64,000 nt of DNA from a virus (Duplodnaviria; Heunggongvirae; Uroviricota; Caudoviricetes), in IMG/VR virus record IMGVR_UViG_3300010882_000010; one strand, given 5' to 3'. Of the stretch, positions 9,420 through 55,030 are shown piece by piece; positions within the stretch are counted from its first letter, which is position 1; each line of letters begins with the position of its first letter. The position numbers and the translations under genes were made by a program. Under the pieces are notes generated by a model, which ran no database searches, had not been told where the DNA came from, and saw only the letters and a list, made by a program, of their open reading frames with translations.

Positions 9420-9496
9420 AATTGTTAGTAACTTTTTTGATTTAAAGAGTTTCGTATCAGTATTTTTAGTATTTTTACAGTATCAAAACAATCAAA
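9420..9496 (+). promoter_or_regulatory. Intergenic promoter element copy A: AATTGTTAGTAAC box, then a ~45 bp spacer, then a Bacteroidetes-type -7 element.
   Basis: aattgttagtaactttttt...cgtatcagtatttttagtatttttacag, ending 1 nt before the ATG at 9497. Copies A and E share an almost identical 60 bp. Confidence 0.55.
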
Positions 9497-10234
9497 ATGA
9501 AACTCATCGGATTTGCTAGCCAATATTACACGCTTTGGAACGTTGAAGAAGAAACGATTTATCAAGCAGATGCCTATGGAAAACAGTGGCCATCTAATCA
9601 TATTACGAAGTACTTCTACATCAAGAATGTGAGTATGGATATTGAGAAAGTAAAGAGTCTTTATCCTGACCTTGCAATTGACGAGTCTCTTAAAGGGCAA
9701 TATCGTGATTTTCAAGTTTCTAAGAGATTACCAGGATTACCAATTAATTTCTTTAATTTTGGAAAGTATTCAGGTCATTCTATTGAAGAAGTTGCTGAGT
9801 TGGATTTTCCTTACTTACTTTGGTGTCTTAATGACTATTGTGGAAGTGCTGATTTCAGGGAAAAAGTAAAAGAGTTACCAAAAATTGTTGAACACTTTGC
9901 TGAAATTAAAAGACGTCAAGAAATGGAAATTGCTGAAAGAATGTCTGAAATTAAGCCCCTAGAATCTGGTGTTTATCGTTTATTGGTTGAAAGTAATCCA
10001 AGAGAAAAGCAAGTTTGGGTTCAAATCTCAGAATTTCACAATGTAGTTTTACAGTTTGATGAAGTTGAAAATTTGAACTATAACGGTTTTTGGTATGAGG
10101 TTCCGGTTTTTAACAATAAAATCAAAAGAATTAAGAACAAAGAACTTGCCTACAATCTTGAAATTTTAAGTTCAGAAATCTTACCAGAAGGAATTTGCAA
10201 CCAAGTAGCAAGAGTAATTTCAATAGAAAAATAG
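9497..10234 (+). CDS. Hypothetical protein.
   Basis: 245-aa ORF immediately downstream of promoter element copy A. Confidence 0.6.
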   Translation: MKLIGFASQYYTLWNVEEETIYQADAYGKQWPSNHITKYFYIKNVSMDIEKVKSLYPDLAIDESLKGQYRDFQVSKRLPGLPINFFNFGKYSGHSIEEVAELDFPYLLWCLNDYCGSADFREKVKELPKIVEHFAEIKRRQEMEIAERMSEIKPLESGVYRLLVESNPREKQVWVQISEFHNVVLQFDEVENLNYNGFWYEVPVFNNKIKRIKNKELAYNLEILSSEILPEGICNQVARVISIEK

Positions 10235-10278
10235 TTGTACCTAACTAAAACTTTTTGTCTTTTTCGTGTTTAAAAAAC

Positions 10279-10803
10279 ATGAGAAAGATAATTTTAATTT
10301 TAGCACTTTTGGTTCCATTTTTGGTTTTTGGTGGATCATTCGTAGATTCAACATCAGTAAAGAAAACTAAGCATACAAAAGGAGATTTAGGAATTTCACT
10401 TAATGTTAGTGCTTTTTCCGCGGATTGGGGATTTAAACCTGATGCAACACGAGATATTAATGCTGGTATTGGTTTTAACTACGTTTTTGTAGATAATTTT
10501 TCTTTTAATGTTTCAATTAATGGAGGATATCAACATCAAGAATCTTCTGAAACATCGGGTGGAAATTTAGGATTTTCTGCCGGAGTTCGATATCATCCAA
10601 AACTTTTTCTTTTGGGTGTTACTTACAATGGAGGAACTAATGATTTTAAGACCTATTCTCAAAGTTTAAGATTTGATTTTGGGTACACTTTTTTCATTAC
10701 TAAGATGTTTTCAATAGAACCGAGTTTGTACTACAAGAAATCAATCGGGAATACGAGTATTAATAGAATTGGTGCAGCAGTTGGATTTGGAATTAATTTT
10801 TAA
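10279..10803 (+). CDS. Secreted small outer-membrane beta-barrel protein (Ail/Lom/OmpX-like).
   Basis: Signal peptide MRKIILILALLVPFLVFG, alternating amphipathic beta-strands, and a C-terminal ...GFGINF ending in Phe, the usual OMP barrel terminus. About 175 aa, which fits an 8-strand barrel. Confidence 0.55.
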   Translation: MRKIILILALLVPFLVFGGSFVDSTSVKKTKHTKGDLGISLNVSAFSADWGFKPDATRDINAGIGFNYVFVDNFSFNVSINGGYQHQESSETSGGNLGFSAGVRYHPKLFLLGVTYNGGTNDFKTYSQSLRFDFGYTFFITKMFSIEPSLYYKKSIGNTSINRIGAAVGFGINF

Positions 10804-11102
10804 AAAATAGTAGCACATGTGTTTAAAAAGAAAAGCGAAAGTAACTTTCACAATAGAAGAGGTTGAAATAATGACTCAACTTTTAATAGACAAGTACAAT
10901 GATCTTCAAGCCAATATTAACAGAAATGATAGTTACAAAGGTAATTACATGCACAAACAGGCAGAAGTAATGAAAATTATTAAGAAATTGTAATGGGTAA
11001 AGAAAGAGAAAAGTTAGTTTTACATGATACTTTTTGGATGCCATTAGCATGTGGTGCTATTTTTGGTTTGCTTTTAGTTTTAATGATAGTTTTGATGCAG
11101 TC

Positions 11103-11507
11103 ATGTTAAAAGTAGAAACTTACCTTGATAAAAGTTCAATTCACGGAATTGGATGTTTTGCAAATAGAGATATTAAGCAAGATGAAATAGTTTGGCTTTT
11201 TGATGTCAGGTTTGATATTAAAGCACCTAAGAGTGTAATTGATTATCAACAAGAGGGTGTACTTTATGATTTTTTAATGATGAATGGTTGGTGGGTAAAC
11301 GAAAGAGATGAAATTTTCTTGATTTGTTGTGCAGATAATGCAAGATTTATCAACCACTCAAAAAATCCTAATGTAACAGGCGATTACATGCTTATTGCAA
11401 CTAAAGATATTGAAGCAGGGGAGGAGATATTACAGAATTATGAAGAGATGGGTGTAATAATAGAGAAAAAGAAAGATGGAAGTTTAAAATTTAAATCAAG
11501 ATACTAA
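11103..11507 (+). CDS. SET-domain protein (putative lysine methyltransferase-like).
   Basis: GIGCFA near the N terminus, ARFINHSKNPNV (the SET NHSCxPN motif with Cys replaced by Lys), and a post-SET-like GEEILQNYEE. Confidence 0.55.
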   Translation: MLKVETYLDKSSIHGIGCFANRDIKQDEIVWLFDVRFDIKAPKSVIDYQQEGVLYDFLMMNGWWVNERDEIFLICCADNARFINHSKNPNVTGDYMLIATKDIEAGEEILQNYEEMGVIIEKKKDGSLKFKSRY

Positions 11508-12415
11508 TGAAAAGAAAATTGCAAAATTGGTGGTGGAAAATTAGAACCGGTAAAAAATGGTACCGATTTGAGAGAAAAGTACTCATAGTTTGGTATTGGA
11601 TTACTAGACCTTATTGGAGGTGGAAACATGATAATTTTGATGGTACTAAAATTGGACCGGCAGATGATATTTCTGTTACAATAAATGGTAAGCCATTAGA
11701 ATTTACAAAGTACACAATGAATCCAGAACAATGGCTTAAAAAATTAGATTACTATTTAAAGAGTATTGGCGGTGTAGAAAATGGATACTTTGGAGATTGG
11801 AGACCTAGAATTTACGGAAGTTGGATGTTTAGTTCAGCTCCGGGTTGGAACATGTTAGTTTACGAACTCACTAAAGAGATAGTAGAAATGGGTTGGAATC
11901 GTCAGATTTGTCAAGTTAAAGAAAAGTTCGGTGGCTTAAGATATTATCCAAATGCTTGTAGTAATGAAGTTTGGGAAAAAATTTACAAAGCAGAGCAAGA
12001 AAGTTACACTATTTGTCAACACTGTGGAAATTACAACGCTGTTGCTTGTACTTATGGAGGAAATCCTTACGGTTGGATTGTAACACTTTGTGAAGACTGT
12101 AGGAAGACTAAAGATGGTGAGAATTACAAACCAATTCAAAATGAAGAAGATGTTTGTGATAAGGATATTGACTGTAAAGATTGTGTAGAAAAGGAATGTT
12201 TTGAAAAAGAAAGTACTGGAAAACTACCATTTAAAAGTTTGACTGTTTATTATGATGAGGAAGGAGTTGTAGGAGTTGACGGTTGTAAAGAAAATGAAGT
12301 AGTAGAGTTTAAAGAAGAGAACATACCAGAATTTGAAAGAAATTGCGATTGTAGCTTACCAAGTTGTGATGGATGTGAAAATTTAGAATTTAATCCTAAT
12401 TTGAAAGTAAACTAA
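11507..12415 (+). CDS. Cys-rich hypothetical protein.
   Basis: 302-aa ORF containing CQHCGNY, CEDCRK and multiple CxxC/CDC clusters. Confidence 0.55.
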   Translation: MKRKLQNWWWKIRTGKKWYRFERKVLIVWYWITRPYWRWKHDNFDGTKIGPADDISVTINGKPLEFTKYTMNPEQWLKKLDYYLKSIGGVENGYFGDWRPRIYGSWMFSSAPGWNMLVYELTKEIVEMGWNRQICQVKEKFGGLRYYPNACSNEVWEKIYKAEQESYTICQHCGNYNAVACTYGGNPYGWIVTLCEDCRKTKDGENYKPIQNEEDVCDKDIDCKDCVEKECFEKESTGKLPFKSLTVYYDEEGVVGVDGCKENEVVEFKEENIPEFERNCDCSLPSCDGCENLEFNPNLKVN

Positions 12416-12416
12416 G

Positions 12417-12590
12417 ATGGAATCGGGAGAATTTTATGCTATCATAATCTTGCTTGTACTTTTGAGTTTGTATGCTCTAATGGCACATTTGAATTACGCA
12501 AAGCAAAAACCTAAATTAGAAGAAGTATGGGCAGGACCAGATGAAGATGAAGAAACTTTAATAGAAATGAAAGGAGATAATAATGAGTGA
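12417..12590 (+). CDS. Small membrane protein.
   Basis: 57-aa ORF with one hydrophobic helix (AIIILLVLLSLYALM). Below the ORF-track length cutoff. Confidence 0.3.
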   Translation: MESGEFYAIIILLVLLSLYALMAHLNYAKQKPKLEEVWAGPDEDEETLIEMKGDNNE

Positions 12591-12822
12591 TAAATTTTAC
12601 GAGCTTTACGAAATAACTCGAGATGATTGGAGTTGGTTTGTAGTTGACTATTTTGGAAAGGGTTCTATGGATAAATTAGATGAACTTGCAGAACAAAAAG
12701 ATCCGAGTCTCTATTCACATCTTAATGATGTTTGGTATCATTTACCAGATAATCAGTTTAATATCAGAGAAAATCCTTCAGGATGGAGTGAGTTTTTGAG
12801 ATTGTTAGAATTTGAAGATTAA
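12583..12822 (+). CDS. Hypothetical protein.
   Basis: 79-aa ORF. Confidence 0.45.
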   Translation: MSDKFYELYEITRDDWSWFVVDYFGKGSMDKLDELAEQKDPSLYSHLNDVWYHLPDNQFNIRENPSGWSEFLRLLEFED

Positions 12823-12835
12823 AAAGAACAAGCAT

Positions 12836-13045
12836 ATGAAAAGGAAATTATTATTGACAAGTGCATTAGATGACGATGATAAAATTTTAGTTAATCTTGA
12901 TTTTGTAGTTGCTATAGAATGGGATTCAGCAAATGAACAATCTACTGTTATTATGAATGGTCAAGATGATTATGAAGTAAAAGAATCAGCAGTAGAGATT
13001 GACAAAATGATTAACAAGTTGAATGATAGTTTAATTAAAAAGTAA
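12836..13045 (+). CDS. Hypothetical protein.
   Basis: ORF 12812..13045; the internal ATG at 12836 is the more likely start. Confidence 0.4.
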   Translation: MKRKLLLTSALDDDDKILVNLDFVVAIEWDSANEQSTVIMNGQDDYEVKESAVEIDKMINKLNDSLIKK

Positions 13046-13051
13046 AGAGTT

Positions 13052-13832: not shown

Positions 13833-13835
13833 AGA

Positions 13836-26925: not shown

Positions 26926-26960
26926 TTGAAGTAGGATGTTTGATGGATTGAGTTACTGAC

Positions 26961-27051
26961 AATTGTTAGTAACTTTTTTCTTTTTAAAGATGTTAGTAAA
27001 GATTTTTTCATTATTTTTGCTTTAGATTAAGAAAAATTAAAATTCAAGAAA
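26961..27051 (+). promoter_or_regulatory. Promoter element copy B.
   Basis: aattgttagtaacttttttc ... cattatttttg (TAtTTTTG at 27012-27019) upstream of the ATG at 27052. Confidence 0.55.
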
Positions 27052-27336
27052 ATGGAAAAACTTTTTATCGTAAGAAACACAAGAGGCGAAACATCAGATA
27101 TGTGGGGAAGTTATGCAATTGCAGCAGATGTAGACAAGTTGAATTATTTTAAAAAATCTAATTCAACATCTTGGCTTGGACCAGATATGAAAAATGAAGA
27201 AATTTGGGTACCAGAATGTAACGGTTTAGATTACTTAGTTGGTGATATTAAGAATAGTTGTAGTGAAGTAATGTTAATTGCATCTTTGAATTACTTGAAA
27301 AATTACTACAAAATTGAAATTTTTGCAAAACTTTAA
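27052..27336 (+). CDS. Hypothetical protein.
   Basis: 94-aa ORF downstream of promoter element copy B. Confidence 0.45.
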   Translation: MEKLFIVRNTRGETSDMWGSYAIAADVDKLNYFKKSNSTSWLGPDMKNEEIWVPECNGLDYLVGDIKNSCSEVMLIASLNYLKNYYKIEIFAKL

Positions 27337-28071: not shown

Positions 28072-28372
28072 GCAAATAACAAAATTACGATTAAAGATAG
28101 CTAATTACAAAAAGTATTGGATAGAAGATACAGACAGACTTTTTGGAAGTTTTGGTATTTGGGGATTGAGTGATATTGAAAATCATGCAAAATACAATAC
28201 TAAAGCAAGTTCTCATGAACAAGCACTTAGAAGATATCTTAGATGGTACAAGGAAAAGTACAAAGAGAGACATGAACATGATGATGTTTTTGATTCTCAT
28301 GGAGAAACAGTAAGAAATTGGGCACACTTTGTTGTAATAGATGAAAATGGATACAAAAAATTTTACCAATGA
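28061..28372 (+). CDS. Hypothetical basic protein.
   Basis: 103-aa ORF. Confidence 0.45.
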   Translation: MKAKQITKLRLKIANYKKYWIEDTDRLFGSFGIWGLSDIENHAKYNTKASSHEQALRRYLRWYKEKYKERHEHDDVFDSHGETVRNWAHFVVIDENGYKKFYQ

Positions 28373-28698
28373 AAAAGAAAACTACAAAATCTAAAGTTGA
28401 CGTAAGTGAGATTAAGTTGCTTACCTATGATGAAATTGAAAGAGGCTTTAAAGTTTCTAAAGAAGACATCCAAAAATTTCTGAAAGCTAAAAACAGTGAT
28501 ACTAATTATTATTATCCAGGCTTGACTTTTGATGAGAAAATAACAAGGGAAATAGTAAAACTTTTTGTTATGGCTTTTCCCGGTATTGATGTTTTAGACA
28601 AATCAAAAAATCATCAGTATATCGAGATTTTTCTGAATACAATGGAACGTCATGTTTTCAGGTATTCAGTTGAAAAACATTTCAAGAGGAATTGTTAG
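28369..28698 (+). CDS. Hypothetical protein; its last codons and stop (AAT TGT TAG) lie inside promoter element copy C.
   Basis: 109-aa ORF. Confidence 0.45.
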   Translation: MKKKTTKSKVDVSEIKLLTYDEIERGFKVSKEDIQKFLKAKNSDTNYYYPGLTFDEKITREIVKLFVMAFPGIDVLDKSKNHQYIEIFLNTMERHVFRYSVEKHFKRNC

Positions 28699-28778
28699 TA
28701 ACTTTTTGAGAAATCTTGAAATTGGTAAAGATTTTTTCCGTATTTTTGCTGTATCAAAATTAATCAAAATTCAATAGT
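28690..28778 (+). promoter_or_regulatory. Promoter element copy C; overlaps the stop codon of the upstream gene.
   Basis: aattgttagtaactttttga ... ccgtatttttg (28741-28748); ATG at 28779. Confidence 0.55.
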
Positions 28779-29087
28779 ATGAAAAGAACAGAACAACAAC
28801 TTTACTTTTTGGACAAACTTTTTCGTTGTATTAAGGGAGGAAAAGTTAATTTTAATACTGATGTAACTTTTGTCGCTACAGACATGTTCATGAGTATGTG
28901 TGATTATTTCGGCTGTAATTCAGCAGATAATGTGAAAAAAGGTGTCTACGTTTTTCAAAATGTTTTGACACAAAAGAGTCTTTTTGACTTTTACTTACCA
29001 AATGCAACTTTTCATTGCTATGAAACAGATCAAAAATTGTACTTTTTTGATTTAGATAATATCCAAGAAGTAGAAGAAACCAATTAA
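28779..29087 (+). CDS. Hypothetical protein.
   Basis: 102-aa ORF. Confidence 0.45.
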
Positions 29088-30399: not shown

Positions 30400-30580
30400 T
30401 TACTCAAAATTAAAATTTTTCAAAAACATAGAGACAATCAACTTTTAGTGAGTTGAATTGTAACATCAATCAAAAACTCAAAAAATTCTCAAATTGTTAA
30501 CAACTTTTTGAAACTAATCCAAAGTTTTGAATAGTAGTAACAAGTGAAGTAGATGAAATTATTAACTAAACAATAACAAA

Positions 30581-31144
30581 ATGTTACAAAGTACAATTTT
30601 CTTTTGGCTTGCAATAGCCATTTCAACAATTTTCGTATTCCAATTTTTACTATCATTATTGGGAGCCGATTCAGATCATAGTGTAGAATTAGATTCTCCA
30701 GGAGGATTTGCACATGATGCTTTTTCATTTAAGGGTGCTATCCATTTTATCTTAGGATTTTCTTGGTTCATGTATCTAATTGACGTTTACACTTTAGCCA
30801 GCTATGGAATGGGGATTGGTGTAGGACTTGTTTTTGTCTTCGTACTCTTCTTCTTTTACAAAGGGGTCTATTCCTTGAGAAATGAGATTCCGAAAGAATC
30901 TGGACAAGATTTGGTAGGTAGAATTGCAACCATCTACAGTGCTTTAGAGAATGGAGATTATCTTGTTACAGTAGAAATTAATGGTGCAGGAAAACAAATC
31001 CAAGTTACACCAGATCCAGGAATTGTAGAAAAATTAAAAACCGGTTCAATGGTACAAATTGGATCCTATATGGGTGGAGTTTACTATATCATAGATTCAA
31101 TGTGGGGAGTGAATGCTAAAAATGAAATTAAAGAACAAAATTAA
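30581..31144 (+). CDS. NfeD-like membrane protein (YuaF/YqiJ-type partner of SPFH proteins).
   Basis: Three hydrophobic helices followed by a soluble beta-rich C-terminal domain. Sits immediately upstream of the flotillin gene, as in yuaF-floT and yqiJ-yqiK operons. Confidence 0.6.
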   Translation: MLQSTIFFWLAIAISTIFVFQFLLSLLGADSDHSVELDSPGGFAHDAFSFKGAIHFILGFSWFMYLIDVYTLASYGMGIGVGLVFVFVLFFFYKGVYSLRNEIPKESGQDLVGRIATIYSALENGDYLVTVEINGAGKQIQVTPDPGIVEKLKTGSMVQIGSYMGGVYYIIDSMWGVNAKNEIKEQN

Positions 31145-34884: not shown

Positions 34885-35327
34885 AACAACAAGACTTAAA
34901 GGGGTACACAATAGCAGTAGATTTTGATGGTACAATTACAATGGGTTCAAATTATCCAGATATTGGAGAAATGAGACCATTGATTAATGTTTGCATAGAA
35001 CAACTTTGGAATAGAGGTGCGGAGATTATTATTTGGACTTGTCGTCATGACCATGGAACTCCTGAAACACATGCAGCATATCAAGCAATGATTGATTTTC
35101 TTAAAGAGCACGATATTAAGCATGATGCTATTAACAAAAATTTAGTAGAATTAGCACCTAATCCAGGACCTAAAATCTATGCTGATTTGTACTTAGATGA
35201 CAAAACTTTATGCTGGAATCCAGAATGTAATGGACATCAGCTTTATGGAAAAATTGACGAGTATTTTAAGAAAAATCCGAAATCAATTAAAGAAACCTAT
35301 CATTTAGAAGGAGGAACTAAGATATGA
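34881..35327 (+). CDS. HAD-superfamily phosphatase-like protein.
   Basis: Motif I YTIAVDFDGTIT (DxDGT). Confidence 0.55.
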   Translation: MKQQDLKGYTIAVDFDGTITMGSNYPDIGEMRPLINVCIEQLWNRGAEIIIWTCRHDHGTPETHAAYQAMIDFLKEHDIKHDAINKNLVELAPNPGPKIYADLYLDDKTLCWNPECNGHQLYGKIDEYFKKNPKSIKETYHLEGGTKI

Positions 35328-35524
35328 GAATAATTAAAGAAGGGGTATTACCAATAAGAGCAATTGATGCAACTTGTCAGAATTGTAAGTGTGAATTTGA
35401 AGTGGATATTGATGTAGATGATATTATTTTCGAGTACAGTCAAGATTTTGGTTCAGATGTTTACAGTTTTGATTGTCCATGTTGTAGTAAAAAATGTTGG
35501 GGTTCAGAAAGAAGTAGATACTAA
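35324..35524 (+). CDS. Small zinc-ribbon protein.
   Basis: CQNCKC...CPCCSKKC. Confidence 0.4.
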   Translation: MRIIKEGVLPIRAIDATCQNCKCEFEVDIDVDDIIFEYSQDFGSDVYSFDCPCCSKKCWGSERSRY

Positions 35525-35600
35525 TTGTTAGTAACTATTTTTAATAATTGGAGATTTGTGTCAAAATTTTCAGTATTTTTGTGTTTAAAATTAAAATAGA
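35523..35600 (+). promoter_or_regulatory. Promoter element copy D.
   Basis: aattgttagtaactattttt ... cagtatttttg (35574-35581); ATG at 35601. Confidence 0.55.
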
Positions 35601-36041
35601 ATGAAGAGTTTAATCGTTTTAAGAGGATTACCTGGTGCAGGAAAATCAACTTTAGCAGAAGTACTTTCAGCTGGAATACATCCAATTGCTTGTGCTGATG
35701 ATTATTTTATGGTAGATGGGGAGTACAAGTTTGATGCAAGAAAATTGGGTGAAGCACATGCTAATTGTAGAAATAGAGTAGAAGTTGCAATGCAAACATC
35801 ATGGCTTAATTCTTTGAAGTTTGATTACAATATCAATGAAGATCCATATCGTACAATAATTGTAGCCAATACTAACACAGTTTCAAGTGAATGGTATGAT
35901 TTCTATTCAGAACTTGCAGAAAAGTATGGTTATCAAATCCATTCTGTAATAGTAGAGAATAGACATGGAAACAAAAGTATTCACAATGTGCCAGAGGAAA
36001 CTATGGAAAGAATGAGAAACAGATTTGAAGTAAAACTATAG
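35601..36041 (+). CDS. P-loop NTPase kinase (polynucleotide kinase / nucleoside-monophosphate kinase-like).
   Basis: Walker A LRGLPGAGKSTLAEVL at the N terminus and small size, comparable to the T4 Pnk kinase domain. Sits downstream of promoter element copy D. Confidence 0.6.
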   Translation: MKSLIVLRGLPGAGKSTLAEVLSAGIHPIACADDYFMVDGEYKFDARKLGEAHANCRNRVEVAMQTSWLNSLKFDYNINEDPYRTIIVANTNTVSSEWYDFYSELAEKYGYQIHSVIVENRHGNKSIHNVPEETMERMRNRFEVKL

Positions 36042-39491: not shown

Positions 39492-39527
39492 AACAAAAAA
39501 TTTTGCTTTTTTAGTTACTATCGAGAA

Positions 39528-39615
39528 ATTGTTAGTAACTTTTTTCTTTTAAAGACGTTTCGTATCAGTATTTTTAGTATTTTTACAGTATCAAAACAAT
39601 CAAAATTCAATCAAA
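39528..39615 (+). promoter_or_regulatory. Promoter element copy E (near-duplicate of copy A).
   Basis: aattgttagtaacttttttcttttaaagacgtttcgtatcagtatttttagtatttttacagtatcaaaacaatcaaaat. Confidence 0.55.
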
Positions 39616-39972
39616 ATGTCACAAGAAAAATTAACAAAAGAACACATCCAACTGAAGCTGGAAACTGACATCCGTTGGTTAGAAAGAGCAGTTGTAGCAA
39701 TTTGGGAATTCCAAACTGAACAAGAAAAATCTTACCAATCTACTTTAGAGTTTAATGGTGTAGGTTTTAATGGTTCAGATGCTCCATTTTTAACGAGTAT
39801 TGCCAATCATCTTAACAAAGGAAGACATCTTACTGAAAAGCAAATCCCTTACGTTCGTAAGAAAATGAAAAAGTATGCTGGTCAACTTTTGAGAATTGCA
39901 AATGCTAAAGCAGTAGCTAAAGCACAGAGAGAAGAAAATCAATCAAATTATCAACTTAAAATCAATTACTAA
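39616..39972 (+). CDS. Hypothetical protein.
   Basis: 118-aa ORF downstream of promoter element copy E. Confidence 0.45.
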   Translation: MSQEKLTKEHIQLKLETDIRWLERAVVAIWEFQTEQEKSYQSTLEFNGVGFNGSDAPFLTSIANHLNKGRHLTEKQIPYVRKKMKKYAGQLLRIANAKAVAKAQREENQSNYQLKINY

Positions 39973-44771: not shown

Positions 44772-45392
44772 ATGAAAAGAGAAGATTGTCCATTCTGTAA
44801 TGTTGCAGAATTGGGTCATGAAATTATCATAGAAACAGAAAATTGTGTTTCGTTTTACAACAAGTTTCCAATTTGCAAAGGTCATGCACTTGTTGTTTGT
44901 AAAGATCACCGAGGATTAAAATCAAAGTGGTACAATGAGTATTGGCAATTGATTGAAGATACAGTTAAAATTTTAGAAGTAAAGTTCCATCCTGATGGTA
45001 TGAACATCGGAATGAATCGAGGTTTTTATGCTGGTCAATCAGTAGAGCATGAACATATGCACTTAATTCCGAGATACAAAGGAGATGTTGAAAATCCTAT
45101 CGGAGGGGTTTGCAATATTGTACCACATCTTCCGAGTTATTACAAAAATGAAGAAAATGAAACTTGCCATTTACCAGCAAATTTAAAGCCCGGTGAAGCA
45201 ATGAAGTATGGAAATTTTGCTATTACATGCTTGGATTTTACTAAAATAGAAACAAAAGAATCAATGCCTGTTCCTTGTGAGTATTGTGATTTGCAATATC
45301 ATGATGTTTTCAATCAATGTCAAAATTTTGTTGATTGTGATCTTTCAGGTGATACAACAGTTTACAGAGTAACTAACTTAATGAAAGAATAA
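44772..45392 (+). CDS. HIT-family (histidine triad) nucleotide hydrolase with a Cys-rich C-terminal extension.
   Basis: N-terminal CPFCNV, the histidine triad EHEHMHLIPR (HxHxHxx), and a C-terminal CEYCDLQYHDVFNQCQNFVDCD cluster. The start is set at the ATG at 44772; the track's upstream start overlaps the previous gene. Confidence 0.7.
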   Translation: MKREDCPFCNVAELGHEIIIETENCVSFYNKFPICKGHALVVCKDHRGLKSKWYNEYWQLIEDTVKILEVKFHPDGMNIGMNRGFYAGQSVEHEHMHLIPRYKGDVENPIGGVCNIVPHLPSYYKNEENETCHLPANLKPGEAMKYGNFAITCLDFTKIETKESMPVPCEYCDLQYHDVFNQCQNFVDCDLSGDTTVYRVTNLMKE

Positions 45393-46339
45393 TGAGAATT
45401 TTAGTTTTTGGTTCAACTGGTCAATTGGGACAGTGTTTCAAGGAGATTCACAAGAATTATCCAGAACATGATTTTGTTTTCTTGACAAGACATGAGCTTG
45501 ATTTAATGAAATGTTGTCTTGAAGATAAGACTAGACTTTCAAATTATTTTAGGTTAACACATCCTGATATTGTAATTAATTGTGCTGGTTACACAGATGT
45601 AGAAAAAGCAGAGTATGATACTTTAAATTGTTTTACTTTAAATGCTTTAGTTCCACAGGAAATGGCACTTAGATGTAAAGAGCAAAATATCAAGTTTATC
45701 CATTTTTCAACAGATTACGTTTTTAATGGAACTAAGAAAGGTGAGTATGTTGAAGGAGATGATATTGTGTTTCAAAGAGCAACCAATTTCTATGGTTTTT
45801 CAAAACAATTGGGCGAGCAATACGTACTACATGAAAATCCGGTAGGTTTTATCATTAGAATTTCAGGATTAGTTTCTACTTATGGTAAGAACTTTGTGAA
45901 AACTATGATTAAAAAATTTCAAGATAATGCAAATTTCAAAGATCTTAAAGTAGTTAGAGATCAATGGACTAAGTTAACATCCGGACATGATTTAGCAGAA
46001 TTTGTGATGCACTTGATTAATGACTATGAATGCAAGCCACAATGTATGATTAAAGGTCCTATTCAAGGAATTGACATCTTACACTATGGAAATGCGCCAT
46101 CTAATTCTTGGTATTATTTTGCAAGATTAATTCAAGAAAAGATGATAGAACTTGAAATTCCTAATGAATGCACTTTAATACCGGTTGATACAGATAAAGA
46201 ATCTACAATAGCCAAAAGACCACAAAATTCAGTACTTAATAATCTAAAGACAATAATCCAATACAATGATACTCCGGGATTGATAGATGATACTATTAAA
46301 AGAATTATCCAATCTGAGTTAAAAGAAAATTGTTCGTAA
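45392..46339 (+). CDS. NAD(P)-dependent epimerase/reductase (RmlD-like short-chain Rossmann protein).
   Basis: N-terminal MRILVFGSTGQLGQ glycine-rich dinucleotide-binding motif and ~315 aa length. The last codons and stop (AAT TGT TCG TAA) lie in promoter element copy H. Confidence 0.65.
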   Translation: MRILVFGSTGQLGQCFKEIHKNYPEHDFVFLTRHELDLMKCCLEDKTRLSNYFRLTHPDIVINCAGYTDVEKAEYDTLNCFTLNALVPQEMALRCKEQNIKFIHFSTDYVFNGTKKGEYVEGDDIVFQRATNFYGFSKQLGEQYVLHENPVGFIIRISGLVSTYGKNFVKTMIKKFQDNANFKDLKVVRDQWTKLTSGHDLAEFVMHLINDYECKPQCMIKGPIQGIDILHYGNAPSNSWYYFARLIQEKMIELEIPNECTLIPVDTDKESTIAKRPQNSVLNNLKTIIQYNDTPGLIDDTIKRIIQSELKENCS

Positions 46340-46408
46340 CTTTTGACAAAGAACTAAAGAACGTAAACTAATTTTCACTATTTTTACCAACTTTTAAACA
46401 CTAACACG
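46328..46408 (+). promoter_or_regulatory. Promoter element copy H, a variant (TTGTTCGTAAC) upstream of the sigma-factor gene.
   Basis: aattgttcgtaacttttgacaaag ... cactatttttacc; ATG at 46409. Confidence 0.45.
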
Positions 46409-47116
46409 ATGGCAACGAAAAAAACAAAAGAAGCTAAAGAACAACGAAACACTAAAGATATTCAATTGCTTGCAACTGAATTTATCAATACTAAATCAGA
46501 AGAAGCATACACTCAAATTGTGAAGAGATTAACACCGGGTTTGCACAAGCATATCATGGAAATTGAACCTAACCAAGAAAAAAGAAAAGAAATCATCAAT
46601 GATGTTTTTGTTAAAGTTTGGACAAAAATCCATCAATATAATCCAGAATTTGGTGCTTTTTCAACTTGGATCTACAAAATAGCATACAATGACGTTTTAC
46701 TTTCAAAAAGAAACAGTTTTAGAACAACTTCTATTGATGGTGGAAATGAAGACACAACAAACGTAACTTTATCTCCTCTTAACTCTATTCAATATTCCTA
46801 CAAAATGAATGAGGAGTTTGATACTTACAAAGATAACAATGTTATTGATGAATTGTATGGAATGGTTAAAACAATGATTTTGAATTTTCCAGAATCAGAG
46901 AAGTACAAAAATTGGAAAACAGCTTTCTTGCTTAAAGATATTGAGGGATACCAATTTAATGAAGTTGCTGAATTAATGAATGAAAATGAAAACACAGTAA
47001 AAGGATGGGTTTGTAAAGCTCGTAGACACTTAGCAAAAATGACCAATAAAGAAGATCAAAATTTGGTTGAAGATTACTTTGCTTATCGCTACGAGTATGA
47101 AAACAATCCGTATTAA
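46409..47116 (+). CDS. Sigma-70-family (ECF-like) RNA polymerase sigma factor.
   Basis: Region-2-like FSTWIYKIAYNDVL and a region-4 helix-turn-helix YQFNEVAELMNENENTVKGWVCKARRHLAK. Confidence 0.75.
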   Translation: MATKKTKEAKEQRNTKDIQLLATEFINTKSEEAYTQIVKRLTPGLHKHIMEIEPNQEKRKEIINDVFVKVWTKIHQYNPEFGAFSTWIYKIAYNDVLLSKRNSFRTTSIDGGNEDTTNVTLSPLNSIQYSYKMNEEFDTYKDNNVIDELYGMVKTMILNFPESEKYKNWKTAFLLKDIEGYQFNEVAELMNENENTVKGWVCKARRHLAKMTNKEDQNLVEDYFAYRYEYENNPY

Positions 47117-47131: not shown

Positions 47132-47539
47132 ATGACTACATTTGGACTATATTGGAGAGAGATACTTTATTATTTCTACATCCGAAGAACTATCAAAAAA
47201 GAGAAAAAGAAAGGTGATATATGGAATACTTTGAGATTAAGAGCAGATTGGGTTGGTAGAATCTACACTGTAATTAATCTTAGAAAAGAAGATGTAGGCG
47301 AAGAAGACCTTGTTAAACGTGCAAAAATTGCAGATAAAATTAAGCCAATTAATGATTACCTTGTTTCTCTTGATATGACTGAAATTGTTTTTCCGGCAAT
47401 TCAGCAACTTTCAGATCAATCATTTCTTATTGTTTACTCACCGATTTTTCGGAAGTTCACTTGGATAAGAACAATTTGGTACTTAATTGTATTAGGTGCT
47501 ATTATTACAGGAGCAATTTACGGAATCAAACTACTTTAA
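47132..47539 (+). CDS. Membrane protein.
   Basis: C-terminal TM helix WYLIVLGAIITGAIYGI. Confidence 0.45.
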   Translation: MTTFGLYWREILYYFYIRRTIKKEKKKGDIWNTLRLRADWVGRIYTVINLRKEDVGEEDLVKRAKIADKIKPINDYLVSLDMTEIVFPAIQQLSDQSFLIVYSPIFRKFTWIRTIWYLIVLGAIITGAIYGIKLL

Positions 47540-50932: not shown

Positions 50933-50980
50933 ATAACTATTTATGCATGAATAATTATCTTTAAAATTTGTGAAATTTAG

Positions 50981-51433: not shown

Positions 51434-51498
51434 AAAAATGGATTAAATCAAGAAAAGAAAATGGTTGGTATAAAGAGCCAGAAACAACTAAGCAAAAA

Positions 51499-51717
51499 AT
51501 GAGCGCAAAGGGTAAGGGGAGAAAAGCATCTTTAGAAACAAGAGAATTGCAATCTAAACAAAGAAGAGGAACGCAAACAGGTAAAGATAATCCTATGTTT
51601 GGTAGATGTGCATATGATATTTGGGTAGAAAAGTATGGAATAGAAGAAGCAGATAGAAAAAGAGAACAGCAAGTTAGGAAGAGTATTGAGACAAAAAAAA
51701 ATTGTAATGTTAACTAA
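51499..51717 (+). CDS. NUMOD3-like DNA-binding segment, probably the C-terminal part of the GIY-YIG endonuclease reached through a frame change at the A9 run.
   Basis: The +1 frame opens at 51403, immediately at the A9 run, and reads ...TIEKWIKSRKENGWYKEPETTKQKMSAKGKGRKASLETRELQSKQRRGTQTGKDNPMFGR, which has NUMOD-type repeats. Confidence 0.45.
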   Translation: MSAKGKGRKASLETRELQSKQRRGTQTGKDNPMFGRCAYDIWVEKYGIEEADRKREQQVRKSIETKKNCNVN

Positions 51718-51814
51718 CAATCTCGGACTTCAGTGTCCAACACTTTGTAATAATAAAATTTTACTACAATTCTTAGATCCTATGAAGTTTGGAATTATTT
51801 TTGGTTCTTAAACT

Positions 51815-52702
51815 TTGGGATCTTTTTCTTTAGCAGGTTTTTTTGAAACTATTGAGAGACACTTAATTACAACAGTTACAGTAAGACCTGGTGAAATTAC
51901 AAGAATTGAGTTAGGTAATATTGGATCAAGAGGAGAGCGTAGAGATATTAGACGAGTTGAAATACCTGAATCCTTACTTGAAGAGAATCGACCTGTAATG
52001 GTAATGACCGGAATTAAAGGACAAGAAAATGCTATTGAGTTTACATCATCTTCAAGTTTTGTTACTTTGATGCAAAATTTTAGAACAGAACTCAAAAAAA
52101 GTTGTTGTCTTAGTTCAAATGTTGAAATTATCAATATCGACAATAGTACAAGAACTTTTGAAATAGCAACTATTAATTTTGGAGTTGAGTTAGCATGGTT
52201 AATGACTATTAATAATGTTCAAATACCAGCAATTCAGATACAAAATCCAATTCGTTATCCTAATGGTCGTTGTAAGTTCATGTTTTTAATGCCAAATTTT
52301 GGTGATATTACAGGAAATGTTACAATGCCAGGAATGATGACAGGTGGTAATAGAATACCAGGAACTAATGTCAATGTTTTACCGTTTGGAATTTCGCCAC
52401 AAATGGCATCTATGAGTGCTTTTATGCCAATGGGTAATAATTGTGGATCGGGTGCAGGCGGGGGAACTGGTAGTATTCCAGGGTCGAATCAAAAACATTT
52501 AGAGTATGCTTTTGATGATGAGTATCAAGAACATGCAAAAACAGGTCATTGGGAACTAATTAATTGGCGTAGAATGGGTAAGATGTTTGTACTAAGTTCA
52601 GATTCAGATGTAACAGAACAGGATATGAATTTGAATGAAACAATTTGGATTAAAAATCCTCAAAATTACATGATTTCAGTTCAAGTAATGATAGCAACTT
52701 AA
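51815..52702 (+). CDS. Hypothetical Asn/Gly-rich protein.
   Basis: 295-aa ORF. Confidence 0.55.
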   Translation: MGSFSLAGFFETIERHLITTVTVRPGEITRIELGNIGSRGERRDIRRVEIPESLLEENRPVMVMTGIKGQENAIEFTSSSSFVTLMQNFRTELKKSCCLSSNVEIINIDNSTRTFEIATINFGVELAWLMTINNVQIPAIQIQNPIRYPNGRCKFMFLMPNFGDITGNVTMPGMMTGGNRIPGTNVNVLPFGISPQMASMSAFMPMGNNCGSGAGGGTGSIPGSNQKHLEYAFDDEYQEHAKTGHWELINWRRMGKMFVLSSDSDVTEQDMNLNETIWIKNPQNYMISVQVMIAT

Positions 52703-52717
52703 AATTAAGAATACAGA

Positions 52718-53203
52718 ATGAAACAAAGAGTTGAAACAAAATTAGGTGATTACATTAATTCTATTAATGAGGCATTTTACGTTAATGGATACAATAAAGA
52801 GGGACAATGTGAGATAGAAGAAGAATTTAAAACAAGAGCCAAAGCCGAAGCATTTTTCAGCAAGAAAGCAAGAGAAAATGGAACTTTAGATTTTTTCTTG
52901 ATGGATGAAGATGGTAATAATTTAAGAGAATTGTTTCAGTCTAAATCAAAGAAAAATGAAAATCTTAAAGAAGGGTTTGTGAACGGAGAAGGAACGGCAG
53001 AACATTATGCATATGAATTTGCAAGTAGCATGATGCACAGTAATGGTAAGTTTAATTTAGAACCAGCAAGAGCATGGACTATGCTTTTTATGAAACAACA
53101 TCCTGATGTTAAGTTTGATCAAAATTGGAAGGAAGAAGCTTTTTCATACTTAGAACAATGGGATGCCAAGTTTACTTTAAAAGAATTTCTTAAAATTTTC
53201 TAA
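52718..53203 (+). CDS. Hypothetical protein with only a weak CTS-like N terminus.
   Basis: N terminus MKQRVETKLGDYINSINEAFY. Confidence 0.5.
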   Translation: MKQRVETKLGDYINSINEAFYVNGYNKEGQCEIEEEFKTRAKAEAFFSKKARENGTLDFFLMDEDGNNLRELFQSKSKKNENLKEGFVNGEGTAEHYAYEFASSMMHSNGKFNLEPARAWTMLFMKQHPDVKFDQNWKEEAFSYLEQWDAKFTLKEFLKIF

Positions 53204-53207
53204 AGAT

Positions 53208-53888
53208 ATGAAGAGAGTTCAAACATTAGATGAGTTTGTTACTAACGAAACAAGTAAAGTTCCATATGGAATTAATAGTTCAGGTGGAATTGAAGCTATG
53301 ATGAAATTGAAGGGGATTGTAGAAAGATACCATAAGAATTGGGAGACTGAAGTTAGAAATGAACTTGATGATATGGTAGTTATTGATGGATATGGAGATA
53401 CAATTGCAAGGATGTACTATGCAATAGGTTGGAAAATGTGGAGAGTTGATGTAGTTGCAAATTATGATGTAAATCCTTCAAAAAGATTAGAATTTGAAAA
53501 GTTTGTCGATCAAATTATTGCAACTCCAGGATTGAATGTAGAAGAAATTTCAAACAAAGAATTTCAGAAAAAATTAGTTGAGTCTGATAATTCTGAACAA
53601 CTTTCTGAATCAATGTTAGGTCTTAATCTTAATTCTGAACAGAAAAAAGAATTAAAAGATTTTGTTTTTAATAATGCAGAAAAAATTTTGACTGAAAGAG
53701 GTGTTAGAAATGTTGTTAAAGTTTTGGAAGTAAATGCGCCTGGTGATAGTGTTAATATTGTTTATCGAAATGATAAGGGGGTTAGAATGAGTAAAAGTTT
53801 TAGTCAAGATGGTGATCCAACAATGGGTGTTCATGGATTAGGATCAAGTGATATAATTAGAGAATTTTCTAAGAAGTACAAAAAGTAA
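53208..53888 (+). CDS. Putative packaged internal protein (CTS-like N terminus).
   Basis: N terminus MKRVQTLDEFVTNETSK. Confidence 0.55.
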   Translation: MKRVQTLDEFVTNETSKVPYGINSSGGIEAMMKLKGIVERYHKNWETEVRNELDDMVVIDGYGDTIARMYYAIGWKMWRVDVVANYDVNPSKRLEFEKFVDQIIATPGLNVEEISNKEFQKKLVESDNSEQLSESMLGLNLNSEQKKELKDFVFNNAEKILTERGVRNVVKVLEVNAPGDSVNIVYRNDKGVRMSKSFSQDGDPTMGVHGLGSSDIIREFSKKYKK

Positions 53889-53902
53889 AATTAAGACCAA
53901 CA

Positions 53903-54232
53903 ATGAAAAGATTAGAAACATTAGAAGAGTTTGTTACTGAAGCAAAAAGTTTAGATTGGGTTGATGTAGATCCTAAAAAAATTGCAAAAGAAATTGTGAA
54001 AGTTTTTGGTAATAATGGAACCTTAGCAACAGAAAAAGGAAAAACTGGAATTTCATTAGAACAATGGGTTGATAATTACAAAGTAGAAAAGTTAGGAAAG
54101 GCTGAAAATCAGATGTGTCATGTAGATTGGGAATGGACTGATAAAGTTTGGGATGAAATTGAAAAGTTGTTGCCGAAAAATAGAGTGAGTGGTGATGAAT
54201 TAGGTGAAATTTTCATGAGACATATCGACTAA
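53903..54232 (+). CDS. Putative packaged internal protein (CTS-like N terminus).
   Basis: N terminus MKRLETLEEFVTEAKSL. Confidence 0.5.
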   Translation: MKRLETLEEFVTEAKSLDWVDVDPKKIAKEIVKVFGNNGTLATEKGKTGISLEQWVDNYKVEKLGKAENQMCHVDWEWTDKVWDEIEKLLPKNRVSGDELGEIFMRHID

Positions 54233-54284
54233 AATTGCAAAAAATTACTAAAAATTAAAAAGTGGAAAAACTTTTTTAAAAATC

Positions 54285-54300
54285 GGAATAGATAGTAAAG
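54285..54300 (+). promoter_or_regulatory. Copy 7 of the motif (GGAATAGATAGTAAAG).
   Basis: Upstream of the small lipoprotein ORF at 54330. Confidence 0.45.
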
Positions 54301-54329
54301 AAAAGAGATTAAAAAATTAAAACAATAAC

Positions 54330-54500
54330 ATGAAAAAATTAGTAGGACTATTACTTAGTATTATCTTAGTAGCAACAGCTTGTTCATACGGGCATAAAGT
54401 AAACAATGAAACAATTGAAATTGATTCTTTGGAATTTGTTGTAGATACAGTAAATTATGATATAGATACAACTTTTGTAGAAATTGATACTTTAAACTAA
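54330..54500 (+). CDS. Small putative lipoprotein (56 aa).
   Basis: MKKLVGLLLSIILVATACSYGH... is a signal peptide plus Cys. Preceded by GGAATAGATAGTAAAG at 54285-54300. Below the ORF-track cutoff. Confidence 0.35.
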   Translation: MKKLVGLLLSIILVATACSYGHKVNNETIEIDSLEFVVDTVNYDIDTTFVEIDTLN

Positions 54501-54691
54501 AACTTTTTATAACTCGCGCATAATAATTAAAACAATAAAATTACAATAATGAAACTTCAAGCAATTAATTTTAGAAAGAATTGGGAAAACATAGTGGATT
54601 TTATCATTGAGAGAATGGATGATAAAGTTGATTGTGATATGGGTTTTTATTGTAGTAGATGAAGTAAGTGAGATAATTAAGAAACAATGAA

Positions 54692-54722
54692 AGCCCGAAT
54701 CCAAAAAAGTTCGGGTTTTTTT
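54692..54722 (+). terminator. Rho-independent terminator.
   Basis: GC-rich hairpin cccgaa-tccaaaaaag-ttcggg followed by tttttttgtttt. Confidence 0.6.
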
Positions 54723-54741
54723 GTTTTAAGAGAAATGATGA

Positions 54742-54810
54742 AATTGTTAGTAACTTTCTGAACTAACTGAAAAATCAGAAAGAAAAAAGTGCTATTTTTG
54801 TGTTTCAAAA
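54742..54810 (+). promoter_or_regulatory. Promoter element copy F, at the 5' edge of the tRNA array.
   Basis: aattgttagtaactttctg ... gctatttttgtg (54793-54800), followed by the aaaatgc x3 repeat. Confidence 0.5.
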
Positions 54811-54831
54811 ATGCAAAATGCAAAATGCAAA
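54809..54831 (+). repeat. Short tandem repeat (AAAATGC)x3.
   Basis: aaaatgcaaaatgcaaaatgcaaat lies directly downstream of promoter copy F. Confidence 0.5.
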
Positions 54832-54866
54832 TAGCATAGAGTACTTTGAAAAAGTGAAAAATTTTA

Positions 54867-54941
54867 CCGTTTTCGTGGTGTAATGGCGTGCATAACTCCC
54901 TGTCACGGAGTAGGTCGGAGTTCGAACCTCCCGGGGACGGC
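54867..54941 (+). tRNA. Putative tRNA-Asp (anticodon GTC); weak acceptor and D stems.
   Basis: Anticodon arm actcc-CTGTCAC-ggagt and T arm ggag-ttcgaac-ctcc. The acceptor ccgtttt/gggacgg needs 3 G-U pairs. Confidence 0.4.
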
Positions 54942-54965
54942 AAAACAAAAAGAGCAAAAAACTAA

Positions 54966-55030
54966 AATTGTTAGTAACTTTTTCCAACTATTAGAAGTTG
55001 GTATTGAAATTTTTAGTATTTTTGTACTGT
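54966..55030 (+). promoter_or_regulatory. Promoter element copy G, upstream of the main tRNA array.
   Basis: aattgttagtaactttttcc ... tagtatttttgtac (55017-55024). Confidence 0.5.

Follow-up and report, generated by a model that had tools for sequence, protein, structure and literature searches.

T4-type phages carry promoter-early stem-loop (PeSL) cassettes, i.e. intergenic composites of about 100 bp in which a terminator stem-loop, an A/T-rich upstream region, a strong early promoter for the host primary sigma factor, a leader and a start codon follow one another, and which are repeated many times on one strand of early regions rich in ORFans (Arbiol et al. 2010, PMC2839356; Comeau et al. 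2014, PMC4122927). Here we analyse a repeated element of similar layout in a 64,000-nt stretch of DNA (the window, in whose positions all coordinates are given) from the virus record IMGVR_UViG_3300010882_000010 (Caudoviricetes). Eight copies of the element combine a near-invariant 13-nt box with a downstream -7 element of the kind used in Bacteroidota. PeSL cassettes are the closest published analogue, and the element may be regarded as their Bacteroidota-phage counterpart with an additional box. The above PeSL features recur here, the promoter being a presumed early one, and two near-identical copies (A and E, see below) may point to recombination between cassettes. Different from PeSLs, the promoter is of the Bacteroidota type (-7 TAnnTTTG, no Shine-Dalgarno (SD) motif) and not of the sigma-70 -35/-10 type of T4-type phages, the hairpin is optional, A/U-rich and able to share bases with the box, and PeSLs have not been described with an invariant box at -63 to -51.

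The consensus of the Bacteroidetes primary sigma factor (sigma-ABfr) is -33 TTTG / -7 TAnnTTTG (Bayley 2000, as cited in PMC2483708). Promoters of Flavobacterium johnsoniae are numbered T-12, A-11, T-8, T-7, T-6 and G-5, with the start site 4-5 nt past the element; their -33 element is weak, and motifs rich in A/T are found at -18 and -28 (Baez 2019, PMC6847099). These sources (Baez 2019, PMC6847099; PMC2483708) describe no host element at -63 to -51. Overall, the signals that govern transcription in Bacteroidota and in their phages have been charted poorly: no elements other than -7 and -33 are established, and the latter is weak.

In other systems, conserved DNA upstream of the promoter core is well known. 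UP elements contact the alpha subunit of RNA polymerase in its C-terminal domain (alpha-CTD), and T4 early promoters have conserved upstream A/T blocks. The dyads bound by P2 Ogr and P4 Delta are centred near -55, while T4 middle promoters rely on a MotA box at -30 together with AsiA (sigma appropriation). Among class I activator sites, that of CRP lies at -61.5 (PMC4132738).

Anatomy of the repeated cassette

Allowing up to one mismatch, TTGTTAGTAAC is found 15 times in the window compared to 2.0 expected matches, and AATTGTTAGTAAC, the sequence of the box, is the window's most over-represented 13-mer. Seven exact matches and one TTCG variant, all on the + strand (9422, 26963, 28692, 35525, 39529, 46330, 54744 and 54968), mark the eight copies. 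Their number, well above chance, agrees with an earlier annotation made from the sequence alone (the initial annotation), as do seven of the eight positions given there; only the box of copy 5 starts at 39527 instead of 39528. The copies, with the features directly downstream, are as follows.

9397-9496, + strand: copy 1; box 9420-9432, T-tract 9433-9438, -7 box TATTTTTA 9470-9477, spacing 50; predicted start site at about 9482, ATG at 9497 of a 245-aa ExoX-like_C protein
26950-27051, + strand: copy 2; box 26961-26973, -7 box TATTTTTG 27012-27019; predicted start site at about 27024, ATG at 27052
28690-28778, + strand: copy 3; box 28690-28702, -7 box 28741-28748, ATG at 28779
35510-35600, + strand: copy 4; box 35523-35535, -7 box 35574-35581; ATG at 35601 of a P-loop kinase/ATPase-like protein
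39513-39615, + strand: copy 5; box 39527-39539, -7 box TATTTTTA 39578-39585, ATG at 39616
46328-46408, + strand: copy 6; variant box AATTGTTCGTAAC 46328-46340, -7 box TATTTTTA 46379-46386, ATG at 46409
54694-54867, + strand: copy 7; box 54742-54754, -7 box 54793-54800, predicted start site at about 54805; followed by tRNA-Asp 54868-54941
54966-55145, + strand: copy 8; box 54966-54978 directly behind tRNA-Asp, -7 box 55017-55024; followed by tRNA-Glu 55146-55219

When the copies are aligned on the downstream box, seven of them measure 51 nt from the start of the box to the T of TATTTTT[GA], and the eighth 50 nt; the variable spacer of 35-50 bp described initially is thus a fixed one. In six copies a start codon follows 20-33 nt behind the -7 box, in place of the about 25-45 bp first proposed for all eight, while copies 7 and 8 precede no open reading frames (ORFs) but the first members of a tRNA array, tRNA-Asp and tRNA-Glu, respectively. 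The cargo downstream of the copies comprises a sigma factor, tRNAs, genes of nucleotide metabolism and replication, and small ORFans.

We aligned 32 copies, eight from the window and 24 from related contigs, which gave the consensus A-AATTGTTAGTAAC-TTTTT-N15-tTnGTA-N5-(A/T tract)-TATTTTT[A/G]-CAnTATCAAAA. In F. johnsoniae numbering the box lies at -63 to -51, closer to the core than the -65 to -75 of the initial annotation, and the T-tract at -50 to -46; with its centre at about -55 the box is, as had been noted, too far upstream to be a -33 element. Further downstream follow tTnGTA at -31 to -26, A/T-rich blocks near -28 and -18 (the A/T tract at about -18), the -7 element and, as a conserved region around the start, CAGTATCAAAA; the same numbering predicts initiation there at the A of CAGTATC, which in copies 3 to 6 and 8 corresponds to about 28753, 35586, 39590, 46391 and 55029. 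The downstream box is indeed a Bacteroidota-type -7 element fitting TAnnTTTG (TAhhTTTG), reading TATTTTTG in five of the eight copies and TATTTTTA in three. Within the window, an intergenic TAhhTTT[G/A] at the usual distance of 20-33 nt from an annotated gene start downstream, or ahead of a tRNA, is provided by these copies only, and other intergenic -7 matches there are placed inconsistently. Overall, TAhhTTTG shows no strand bias in the window (40 on +, 45 on -).

Compared to sigma-ABfr promoters, the likeness thus comprises TATTTTTG as a fit to TAhhTTTG, A/T blocks that lie, as in F. johnsoniae, one helical turn (-18) and two turns (-28) farther upstream, and A-rich leaders of 20-33 nt; in related phages TTT[G/A]C is present as well, at about 20 nt upstream of the -7 element. 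The window copies differ, however, in that none of them, nor any copy in the related 146-kb contig described below, has a -33 TTTG 19-21 nt upstream of the -7 element, tTnGTA being found 13-15 nt upstream instead, and in that position -5 is A in three of eight.

In copies 1, 2 and 5 an upstream (A)AGTTACT(A) arm pairs with (T)AGTAACT(T) of the box, and a T-run comes right after. The resulting hairpins have predicted free energies of -14.7, -14.8 and -9.6 kcal/mol (z-scores -5.1, -4.5 and -3.1), and that of copy 2, with 11 pairs, is the top site of an independent terminator scan. This overlap between box and terminator had not been part of the initial annotation. The stem-loops on the + strand are the following.

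9406-9434, + strand: copy 1 hairpin with flanking A/U pairing from 9397 to 9440; box as 3' arm, z -5.05
26950-26975 plus T-run, + strand: copy 2 hairpin; box as 3' arm, z -4.48
39513-39520 / 39533-39540 plus T-run, + strand: arms of the copy 5 hairpin, z -3.12
35510-35542, + strand: weak hairpin of copy 4, z -2.2
54694-54699 / 54710-54715, + strand: stem of a separate GC-rich terminator upstream in copy 7, with seven T at 54716-54722

A stable hairpin followed by a U-run, as expected of an intrinsic terminator, is therefore formed with the box in copies 1, 2 and 5. No box hairpin of this kind is present in copies 3, 6, 7 and 8, and copies 3 (z 0.06), 6 and 8 lack any hairpin. The PeSL-like union of promoter and stem-loop in one repeated motif thus applies to copies 1, 2 and 5, weakly to copy 4, and to copy 7 through its separate terminator. 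Across the 32 aligned copies the box serves as a stem arm in 12-13, with loops of 10 to 16 nt. Relatives place the hairpin in one of three ways, i.e. before the box, with the box inside it, or in the stretch separating box and -7 element, and the spacing stays the same. Since a partner arm exists in only 12-13 of 32 copies and the loop is variable, the hairpin is optional and not the reason for the conservation of the box.

Individual relatives illustrate this variety. Loci L248, L255 and L325 hold a GC-rich terminator hairpin with the box in its loop, and six others (L250, L269, L296, L298, L302 and L350) have such a hairpin between box and -7 element, the 51-nt spacing being kept in all of them. 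In these spacer hairpins the loop carries the -33 T-run, so that terminators are embedded within promoters. The spacer of copy 8 in the window holds a short inverted repeat, CCAACT/AGTTGG.

The box can also be read as coding sequence. In copy 3 it gives AAT TGT TAG, the final codons and stop of ORF 28369-28698, and in copy 6 AAT TGT TCG TAA, which ends ORF 45392-46339; both cases had been recognised before, and in a third one, copy 4, the box shares its first two bases with the TAA that ends ORF 35324-35524. A single 13-mer thus acts as promoter element, terminator arm and stop codon, an instance of genome economy.

Copies 1 and 5, reported initially as near-identical copies A and E, indeed share 92 of 102 positions, including an exact run of 50 nt. 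The remaining spacer pairs are about 40-70% identical, and as the spacers diverge in this way while the box is invariant, selection would act on the box rather than on the repeat.

Apart from the eight copies, an orphan variant box AATTGTTAACAAC with a T-tract is located at 30492-30545 (+), ahead of the gene 30581-31144. It has no -7 box at +51, a class-C-like TTGAATAGTAGTAAC (see below) coming next instead, and the variant TGTTAACAAC of this box is also in use among relatives. The status of the site is uncertain; it may be a hybrid or decayed cassette.

The element in related phages and in bacterial genomes

The window is part of ENA contig ERZ27257304 k141_515881 (160,151 bp). Extending it by about 8 kb per side brought the covered part to about 80 kb. 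In the upstream flank, which codes for very large structural-type genes, no cassette copy is found, whereas the downstream flank holds two further exact copies at window-equivalent positions 68461 and 68728, i.e. a total of 10 in about 80 kb. With a GC content of 31%, the window shows a GC skew that is both strong and constant, and practically all of its genes lie on the + strand. An SD-like motif precedes 10 of 85 ATG genes, and start-codon contexts are of the Bacteroidota type, being A-rich at -16 to -11 with a purine at -3. By RNase H the closest cultured relatives are Cellulophaga phages (36-40% identity). Sigma-70-type promoters are not enriched in the window (90 compared to 88 expected), and a megablast search of GenBank phages with 24 kb returned zero matches. 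The source is a large uncultured myovirus-like phage. The Bacteroidetes host proposed initially is in line with the scarcity of SD motifs, the A-rich leaders, the purine at -3, the GC content and the kinship with Cellulophaga phage RNase H; very probably it is a member of the Bacteroidota.

An exact search of IMG/VR for box-N37/38-TATTTTT led to IMGVR_UViG_3300010167_000014 (146 kb, identical to Ga0123354_10000014), which holds 14 exact copies and at least 22 with one mismatch, and to a 30-kb contig with two further copies. When about 80 kb of the window phage are compared to about 95 kb of the 146-kb contig (blastn, tblastx), the element itself is almost the sole similarity; a 90-nt stretch of one copy in this contig matches copies A and E at 93% identity. 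The two further motif classes of the window, B and C (see below), are present there as well, and the contig's sheath protein shares 78% identity with the sheath of a contig whose sigma factor and that of the window are 57% identical. An interpretation according to which two unrelated phages share the element, so that it would be host-determined, was withdrawn on account of the shared class B and C motifs and of the sheath. By its sequence, the 146-kb contig is a member of the same family with divergent early regions.

A wider IMG/VR scan with TGTTAATAAC-N37/38-TAWWTTTR yielded at least 120 loci, many of them in contigs of 100-270 kb. Among the 119 distinct sequences listed, N38 occurs in 89 and N37 in 30, where chance would make both equally frequent; by our own binomial estimate the excess among the listed matches corresponds to p of about 1e-7. 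Taken together, the spacing of 51 nt (occasionally 50) holds for all eight copies in the window, both copies beyond it, 22 in the 146-kb contig and locus L014, and 23 of 24 promoters of distant relatives. All copies have the same direction as the genes, and in the relatives' loci the core is on the + strand 36 times and on the - strand five times.

An independent view of the element is provided by the gene behind copy 6:

46409-47116, + strand: ECF-type (extracytoplasmic function) sigma factor gene, 235 aa, with Sigma70_r2 and Sigma70_r4_2

In deposited phage records, tblastn with this sigma factor finds at best about 20-28% identity, in Lak megaphages (just 23%) and other uncultured or metagenomic phages, and no cultured relative. 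Its homologues led us to 48 viral loci, many of which (25-39% sigma identity, GC 0.32-0.43) show nnnTGTTA[A/G][T/A/C]AAC-TTT...-TAnnTTT[G/A] about 100 nt upstream of the sigma gene, with a spacing of 51 nt in 23 of 24 distinct promoters and of 50 nt in one. Distant relatives have in addition a canonical -33 TTT[G/A]C about 20 nt upstream of the -7 element. Comparison of the orthologous sigma promoters, TGTTAATAAC, TGTTAAAAAC and the window's TGTTCGTAAC, reduces the box to a family core TGTT-N3-AAC, which includes the inverted repeat GTT-N3-AAC. The nearest sigma relatives (L191, L194, L196 and L199; 49-57% identity) carry TTTG-N20-TATATTTG without a box and have A-tracts at the equivalent position.

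Downstream, the sigma gene belongs to a conserved operon in which it is followed by a protein of about 135-176 aa without known function (window 47132-47539) and a PD-(D/E)XK nuclease, with orthologues in L191, L194 and L196. The small protein 47132-47539 has no Pfam or PHROG match; it could be an anti-sigma factor or a co-factor.

Box promoters are not confined to sigma genes. Among the 120 box-promoter loci listed, a sigma homologue lies nearby in just four. We clustered the 109 distinct first ORFs behind box promoters from all related loci in search of an autoregulated activator: the single large cluster consists of 19 sigma genes, from loci retrieved through sigma, and apart from it only small clusters of varied early genes appeared. 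The remaining first ORFs are of varied early type (FEN-like nuclease, ATPases, kinases, small ORFans) and include 62 singletons.

The whole genome of Cellulophaga phage phi4:1, by RNase H the closest relative in culture, contains no box, its promoters being canonical TTGC-N19-TAnnTTTG. As the distribution is patchy, the box is not a general Bacteroidota requirement. An IMG/VR scan with the downstream half, TATTTTTRCANTATCAAA, gave more than 100 single matches and was unspecific; used as a negative control set, these viral loci hold the box/-7 composite once, in L140, a contig that also carries the family sigma factor.

A scan of bacterial genomes with the exact window variant returned 17 single hits, compared to about 10 by chance (a hand estimate for AT-rich genomes), and no more box copies within the 8-kb flanks, which is no evidence of a host regulon. 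Six of the 17 hits (L039, L041, L043, L047, L048 and L050) are one orthologous Flavobacterium promoter. In six species this chromosomal promoter, AATTGTTAGTAAC-TTT-N-TTTTTAGTGTTTTTA-TATTTTTA-CAGTA, is located ahead of the gene for a small membrane protein of 138 aa; box, T-tract, -7 box and start region all agree with those of the phage cassette, and the spacing is 50. The likeness may be due to chance, may be a phage-derived remnant, or may hint at a host factor that reads the box. A full-text literature search for the box sequences found only unrelated GUIDE-seq oligonucleotides.

As to the sheath, the protein concerned comes from Ga0373119_1124039 (L191:669-1520), a contig without a box in the 16 kb seen, and shares 78% identity with the sheath of the box-rich 146-kb contig (L188:3-854). 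Closely related structural modules thus exist both with and without box promoters, and such a pair of contigs would be ideal for tracing a box-binding factor by gene presence and absence.

Possible function of the box

Judged from sequence, the element is a DNA-level promoter element that works with a host-type -7 element, since its phasing is fixed, its orientation single, its placement intergenic ahead of genes or tRNAs, and its conservation outlasts that of its surroundings. That selection acts on the box is further indicated by the orthologous sigma promoter, which keeps box and spacing down to 25-39% sigma identity. We therefore consider it rather probable that the copies are promoter cassettes for the host primary sigma factor, presumably early ones, often combined with a terminator in PeSL-like fashion and equipped with a position-locked upstream recruitment box. 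The initial annotation, which read the elements as early promoters for host RNA polymerase, was broadly right in this but incomplete: besides the hairpins, it lacked the fixed spacing, the missing -33 TTTG and the conservation across the phage family. Because the cassettes (class A) drive a sigma gene and tRNAs, because box-less relatives express sigma from a plain host promoter, and because class C motifs precede tail and baseplate genes, class A would stand at the start of a three-class programme; the cargo, the sigma promoter of the box-less relatives and the class C placement together suggest the early timing.

In this promoter-cassette model the core would be a host sigma-A(Bfr)-type promoter with -7 TATTTTT[G/A] and blocks at about -18 and -28, initiating about 4 nt downstream at the A of CAGTATCAAAA and producing an A-rich leader without an SD motif. 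The box and the T-tract behind it, at -63 to -46, would act on DNA as a position-locked recruitment element, either as the site at which an activator dimer binds and touches RNA polymerase, in the way of class I activators acting from about -55, or as a sequence-specific UP-like contact for alpha-CTD. Given the tight packing of genes on one strand, a cassette would also have to end the upstream transcript, for which a hairpin upstream of the box, or the box plus T-run as 3' arm, could serve; the box may at the same time be read as final codons and stop. The roughly 100 bp of shared sequence would furthermore offer homology for recombination, as copies A and E suggest.

Each of the two options has its precedents. 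With class I sites the element shares a short dyad upstream of the core, stringent helical phasing, a large number of co-regulated phage promoters and an upstream hexamer that is weak or missing, but the dyad is very short here (GTT-N3-AAC) and P2-type sites are late, not early. With UP elements it shares the position of the distal subsite (box and T-tract at -63 to -46), an A-rich stretch followed by a T-tract and, in box-less relatives, A-tracts at the same place; moreover, an UP-like contact needs no extra factor, as immediate-early promoters require. UP elements, however, tolerate variation and have no invariant G/C, whereas the box is near-invariant and partly palindromic. T4 middle promoters resemble the cassettes in that the host's downstream element is kept (-10 in T4, -7 here) while the upstream hexamer is replaced by a phage box. 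They differ in that the MotA box lies at -30 and the present one at -57, and in that relatives keep a normal -33 element beside the box; no MotA or AsiA homologue was seen among the proteins scanned.

Several points weigh against a host-read early promoter with an activating box. The G at -5, nearly invariant in host promoters, is A in three of eight window copies and in most copies of the 146-kb contig, which, along with the missing canonical -33, may point to a modified or non-host holoenzyme. No candidate box-binding protein was found. As UP elements are normally A/T-rich without an invariant G or C, contact by alpha-CTD would fit poorly. The box is patchy, being absent in the four loci with 49-57% sigma identity (L191, L194, L196 and L199) and in phi4:1; such a distribution would fit an accessory phage factor and a host-lineage factor equally. 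Finally, canonical immediate-early promoters and a gene for an activator may lie in the other half, roughly, of the 160-kb contig; class A promoters would then have to be called 'middle' and not 'early'.

A dependence of the promoters on the box is probable in the window lineage, as suggested by the missing canonical -33 and the frequent A at -5. More tentatively, and with somewhat less than even confidence, we propose that TGTTnnnAAC(TTT) near -55 is an undescribed third promoter element of Bacteroidota, read by a family-conserved activator, phage-encoded or delivered with the virion, or by the host polymerase itself, and that it substitutes for the -33 element and defines the early regulon. 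As far as literature searches show, the box has not been described previously. As an upstream element that is near-invariant and phased to the single base pair, the box offers a testable handle on how Bacteroidota recruit their polymerase, and it is a marker of what is probably the early regulon throughout a family of large uncultured phages. Combined with the motifs of classes B and C, it would allow annotation of temporal classes from sequence alone. Possible uses include promoter parts for Bacteroides and Flavobacterium engineering and a metagenome signature for the phage family; were the box truly a third promoter element, it would provide a portable strong-promoter module for Bacteroidota and would define the early regulon in a large family of uncultured phages of 100-270 kb.

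Alternatively, the box might be an operator through which a phage repressor or switch retimes all class A promoters, the promoter itself working without it. A near-invariant box with the short inverted repeat GTT-N3-AAC, as is common in operators, the full canonical -33/-7 of the relatives, where the box may hence be dispensable for initiation, and the early shut-off that a temporal programme of three promoter classes implies would all suit such a role. A site centred at about -55, however, misses the core contacts of RNA polymerase, strict 51-nt phasing throughout the family is more typical of productive polymerase contact, and the window lineage, which lacks a canonical -33, suggests dependence on the box rather than inhibition. 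We thus regard an operator as unlikely.

Genes for ECF sigma factors are typically autoregulated from a promoter just upstream. The box could accordingly serve the ECF-like sigma factor of the phage itself as an AACTT-type -35 element, within a dual promoter at which host sigma-A acts first and positive autoregulation by the phage sigma factor follows. Throughout the family it is this motif that is conserved ahead of the sigma gene, its end AAC plus T-tract resembles ECF -35 elements and the class B motif CTAAAACTTTTT-N12-TAATAAT, and GTAACTT-N17-TTnGTA of the window lineage recalls ECF -35/-10 geometry. The relatives nevertheless have no conserved -10-like motif 16-18 nt past AAC, where a host-type -33 sits, and what is invariant at a fixed distance is the host-type -7 box. 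Neither the box-less promoters of the nearest sigma relatives (49-57% identity) nor the rarity of sigma homologues near box promoters (four of the 120 loci listed, with otherwise varied downstream genes and 62 singletons) would be expected of such autoregulation, which we consider distinctly unlikely. A direct ECF -35/-10 reading of the box was rejected, there being no conserved CGT-like -10 at 16-17 nt across the family; class B fits this geometry better.

Little likelihood attaches to the assumption that the element is a mobile or recombining repeat, i.e. a PeSL-like homology cassette whose box is kept by gene conversion and spread. Its basis is the identity of copies A and E (92/102), the 90-nt copy of the 146-kb contig, 93% identical although the contigs share almost no other DNA, and the precedent of PeSLs, documented substrates of recombination by shuffling and mini-circles. 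Outside the A/E pair, though, the spacers have diverged while box, spacing and -7 box are fixed, and gene conversion within a genome cannot account for a box that persists at the orthologous sigma promoter at 25-39% sigma identity and differing GC. Conservation of the architecture across a large phage family likewise speaks against a simple recent mobile repeat.

An action of the box in RNA, as 3' arm of intrinsic terminators or as a processing site whose distance to the promoter is incidental, is very improbable. Copies 1, 2 and 5, and about 40% of all copies, do use the box in a strong hairpin with a U-run, but the remaining roughly 60% lack a pairing partner, which largely refutes this explanation; hairpins of relatives are placed differently (ahead of the box, between it and the -7 element, or enclosing the box in their loop), and the loop varies from 10 to 16 nt while the distance from box to -7 is constant.

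In the dCas12f-sigmaE systems of Flavobacteriia, a nuclease-dead Cas12f encoded beside an ECF sigma factor starts transcription at a fixed distance of about 46 bp from the target-adjacent motif. An analogous RNA-guided target, at which a TnpB/Cas12f-like protein and a guide RNA recruit the phage ECF sigma-RNA polymerase, was considered in view of the window's two TnpB/Cas12f-like proteins and its ECF-type sigma factor and was rejected, its probability being close to nil, as the sigma gene is not adjacent to TnpB genes here or in the 48 related loci, the one TnpB examined (5946-7301) has the RuvC motifs GIDMG, ENL and DRD by alignment reading, which makes a nuclease-dead protein improbable, transcription begun 46 bp away from the G bases in the box would start no later than the -7 box, leaving that box unexplained, and neither TnpB gene has a second, guide-like box copy next to it.

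Further motifs and neighbouring genes

Two other intergenic motifs recur on the + strand. Class B, CTAAAACTTTTT-N12-TAATAAT(A), is located at 1543, 54497, 59306 and 61428, with weaker examples at 10245 and 44278. Its geometry is ECF-like, with an AAC -35 element and 17 nt from the C to the -10. The motif also occurs in the 146-kb contig, while distant relatives have CTA[A/G]AACTTTTT-N12-TATAAA[C/T]A. Class B motifs are plausibly promoters read by the phage ECF-type sigma factor.

Class C, (T)GGAATA[A/G]ATAGTAAA(A)G, occurs ten times on the + strand and not on the - strand, 15-45 nt before start codons:

5914, 13525, 20145, 38467, 48562, 50916, 54285, 55626, 58687 and 60143, + strand: class C copies

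The class C motifs of the 146-kb contig stand ahead of genes for tail and baseplate. The motif resembles the T4 late TATAAATA and is probably a late promoter. The two TnpB/Cas12f-like genes of the window, 5946-7301 and 60168-61406 (OrfB_IS605 with a Cas12f1-like zinc ribbon), each lie directly behind a class C motif.

The tRNA array headed by copies 7 and 8 spans 54868-60160 and exceeds the ARAGORN count: Rfam adds 57120-57192 and 57601-57733, the latter a tRNA of 133 nt, apparently with an insertion. Many T-arm-like fragments (GGTTCGAATCC) are scattered between 55220 and 60000, and a DUF559/MTES_1575 endonuclease-like ORF (55653-56471) is situated inside the array.

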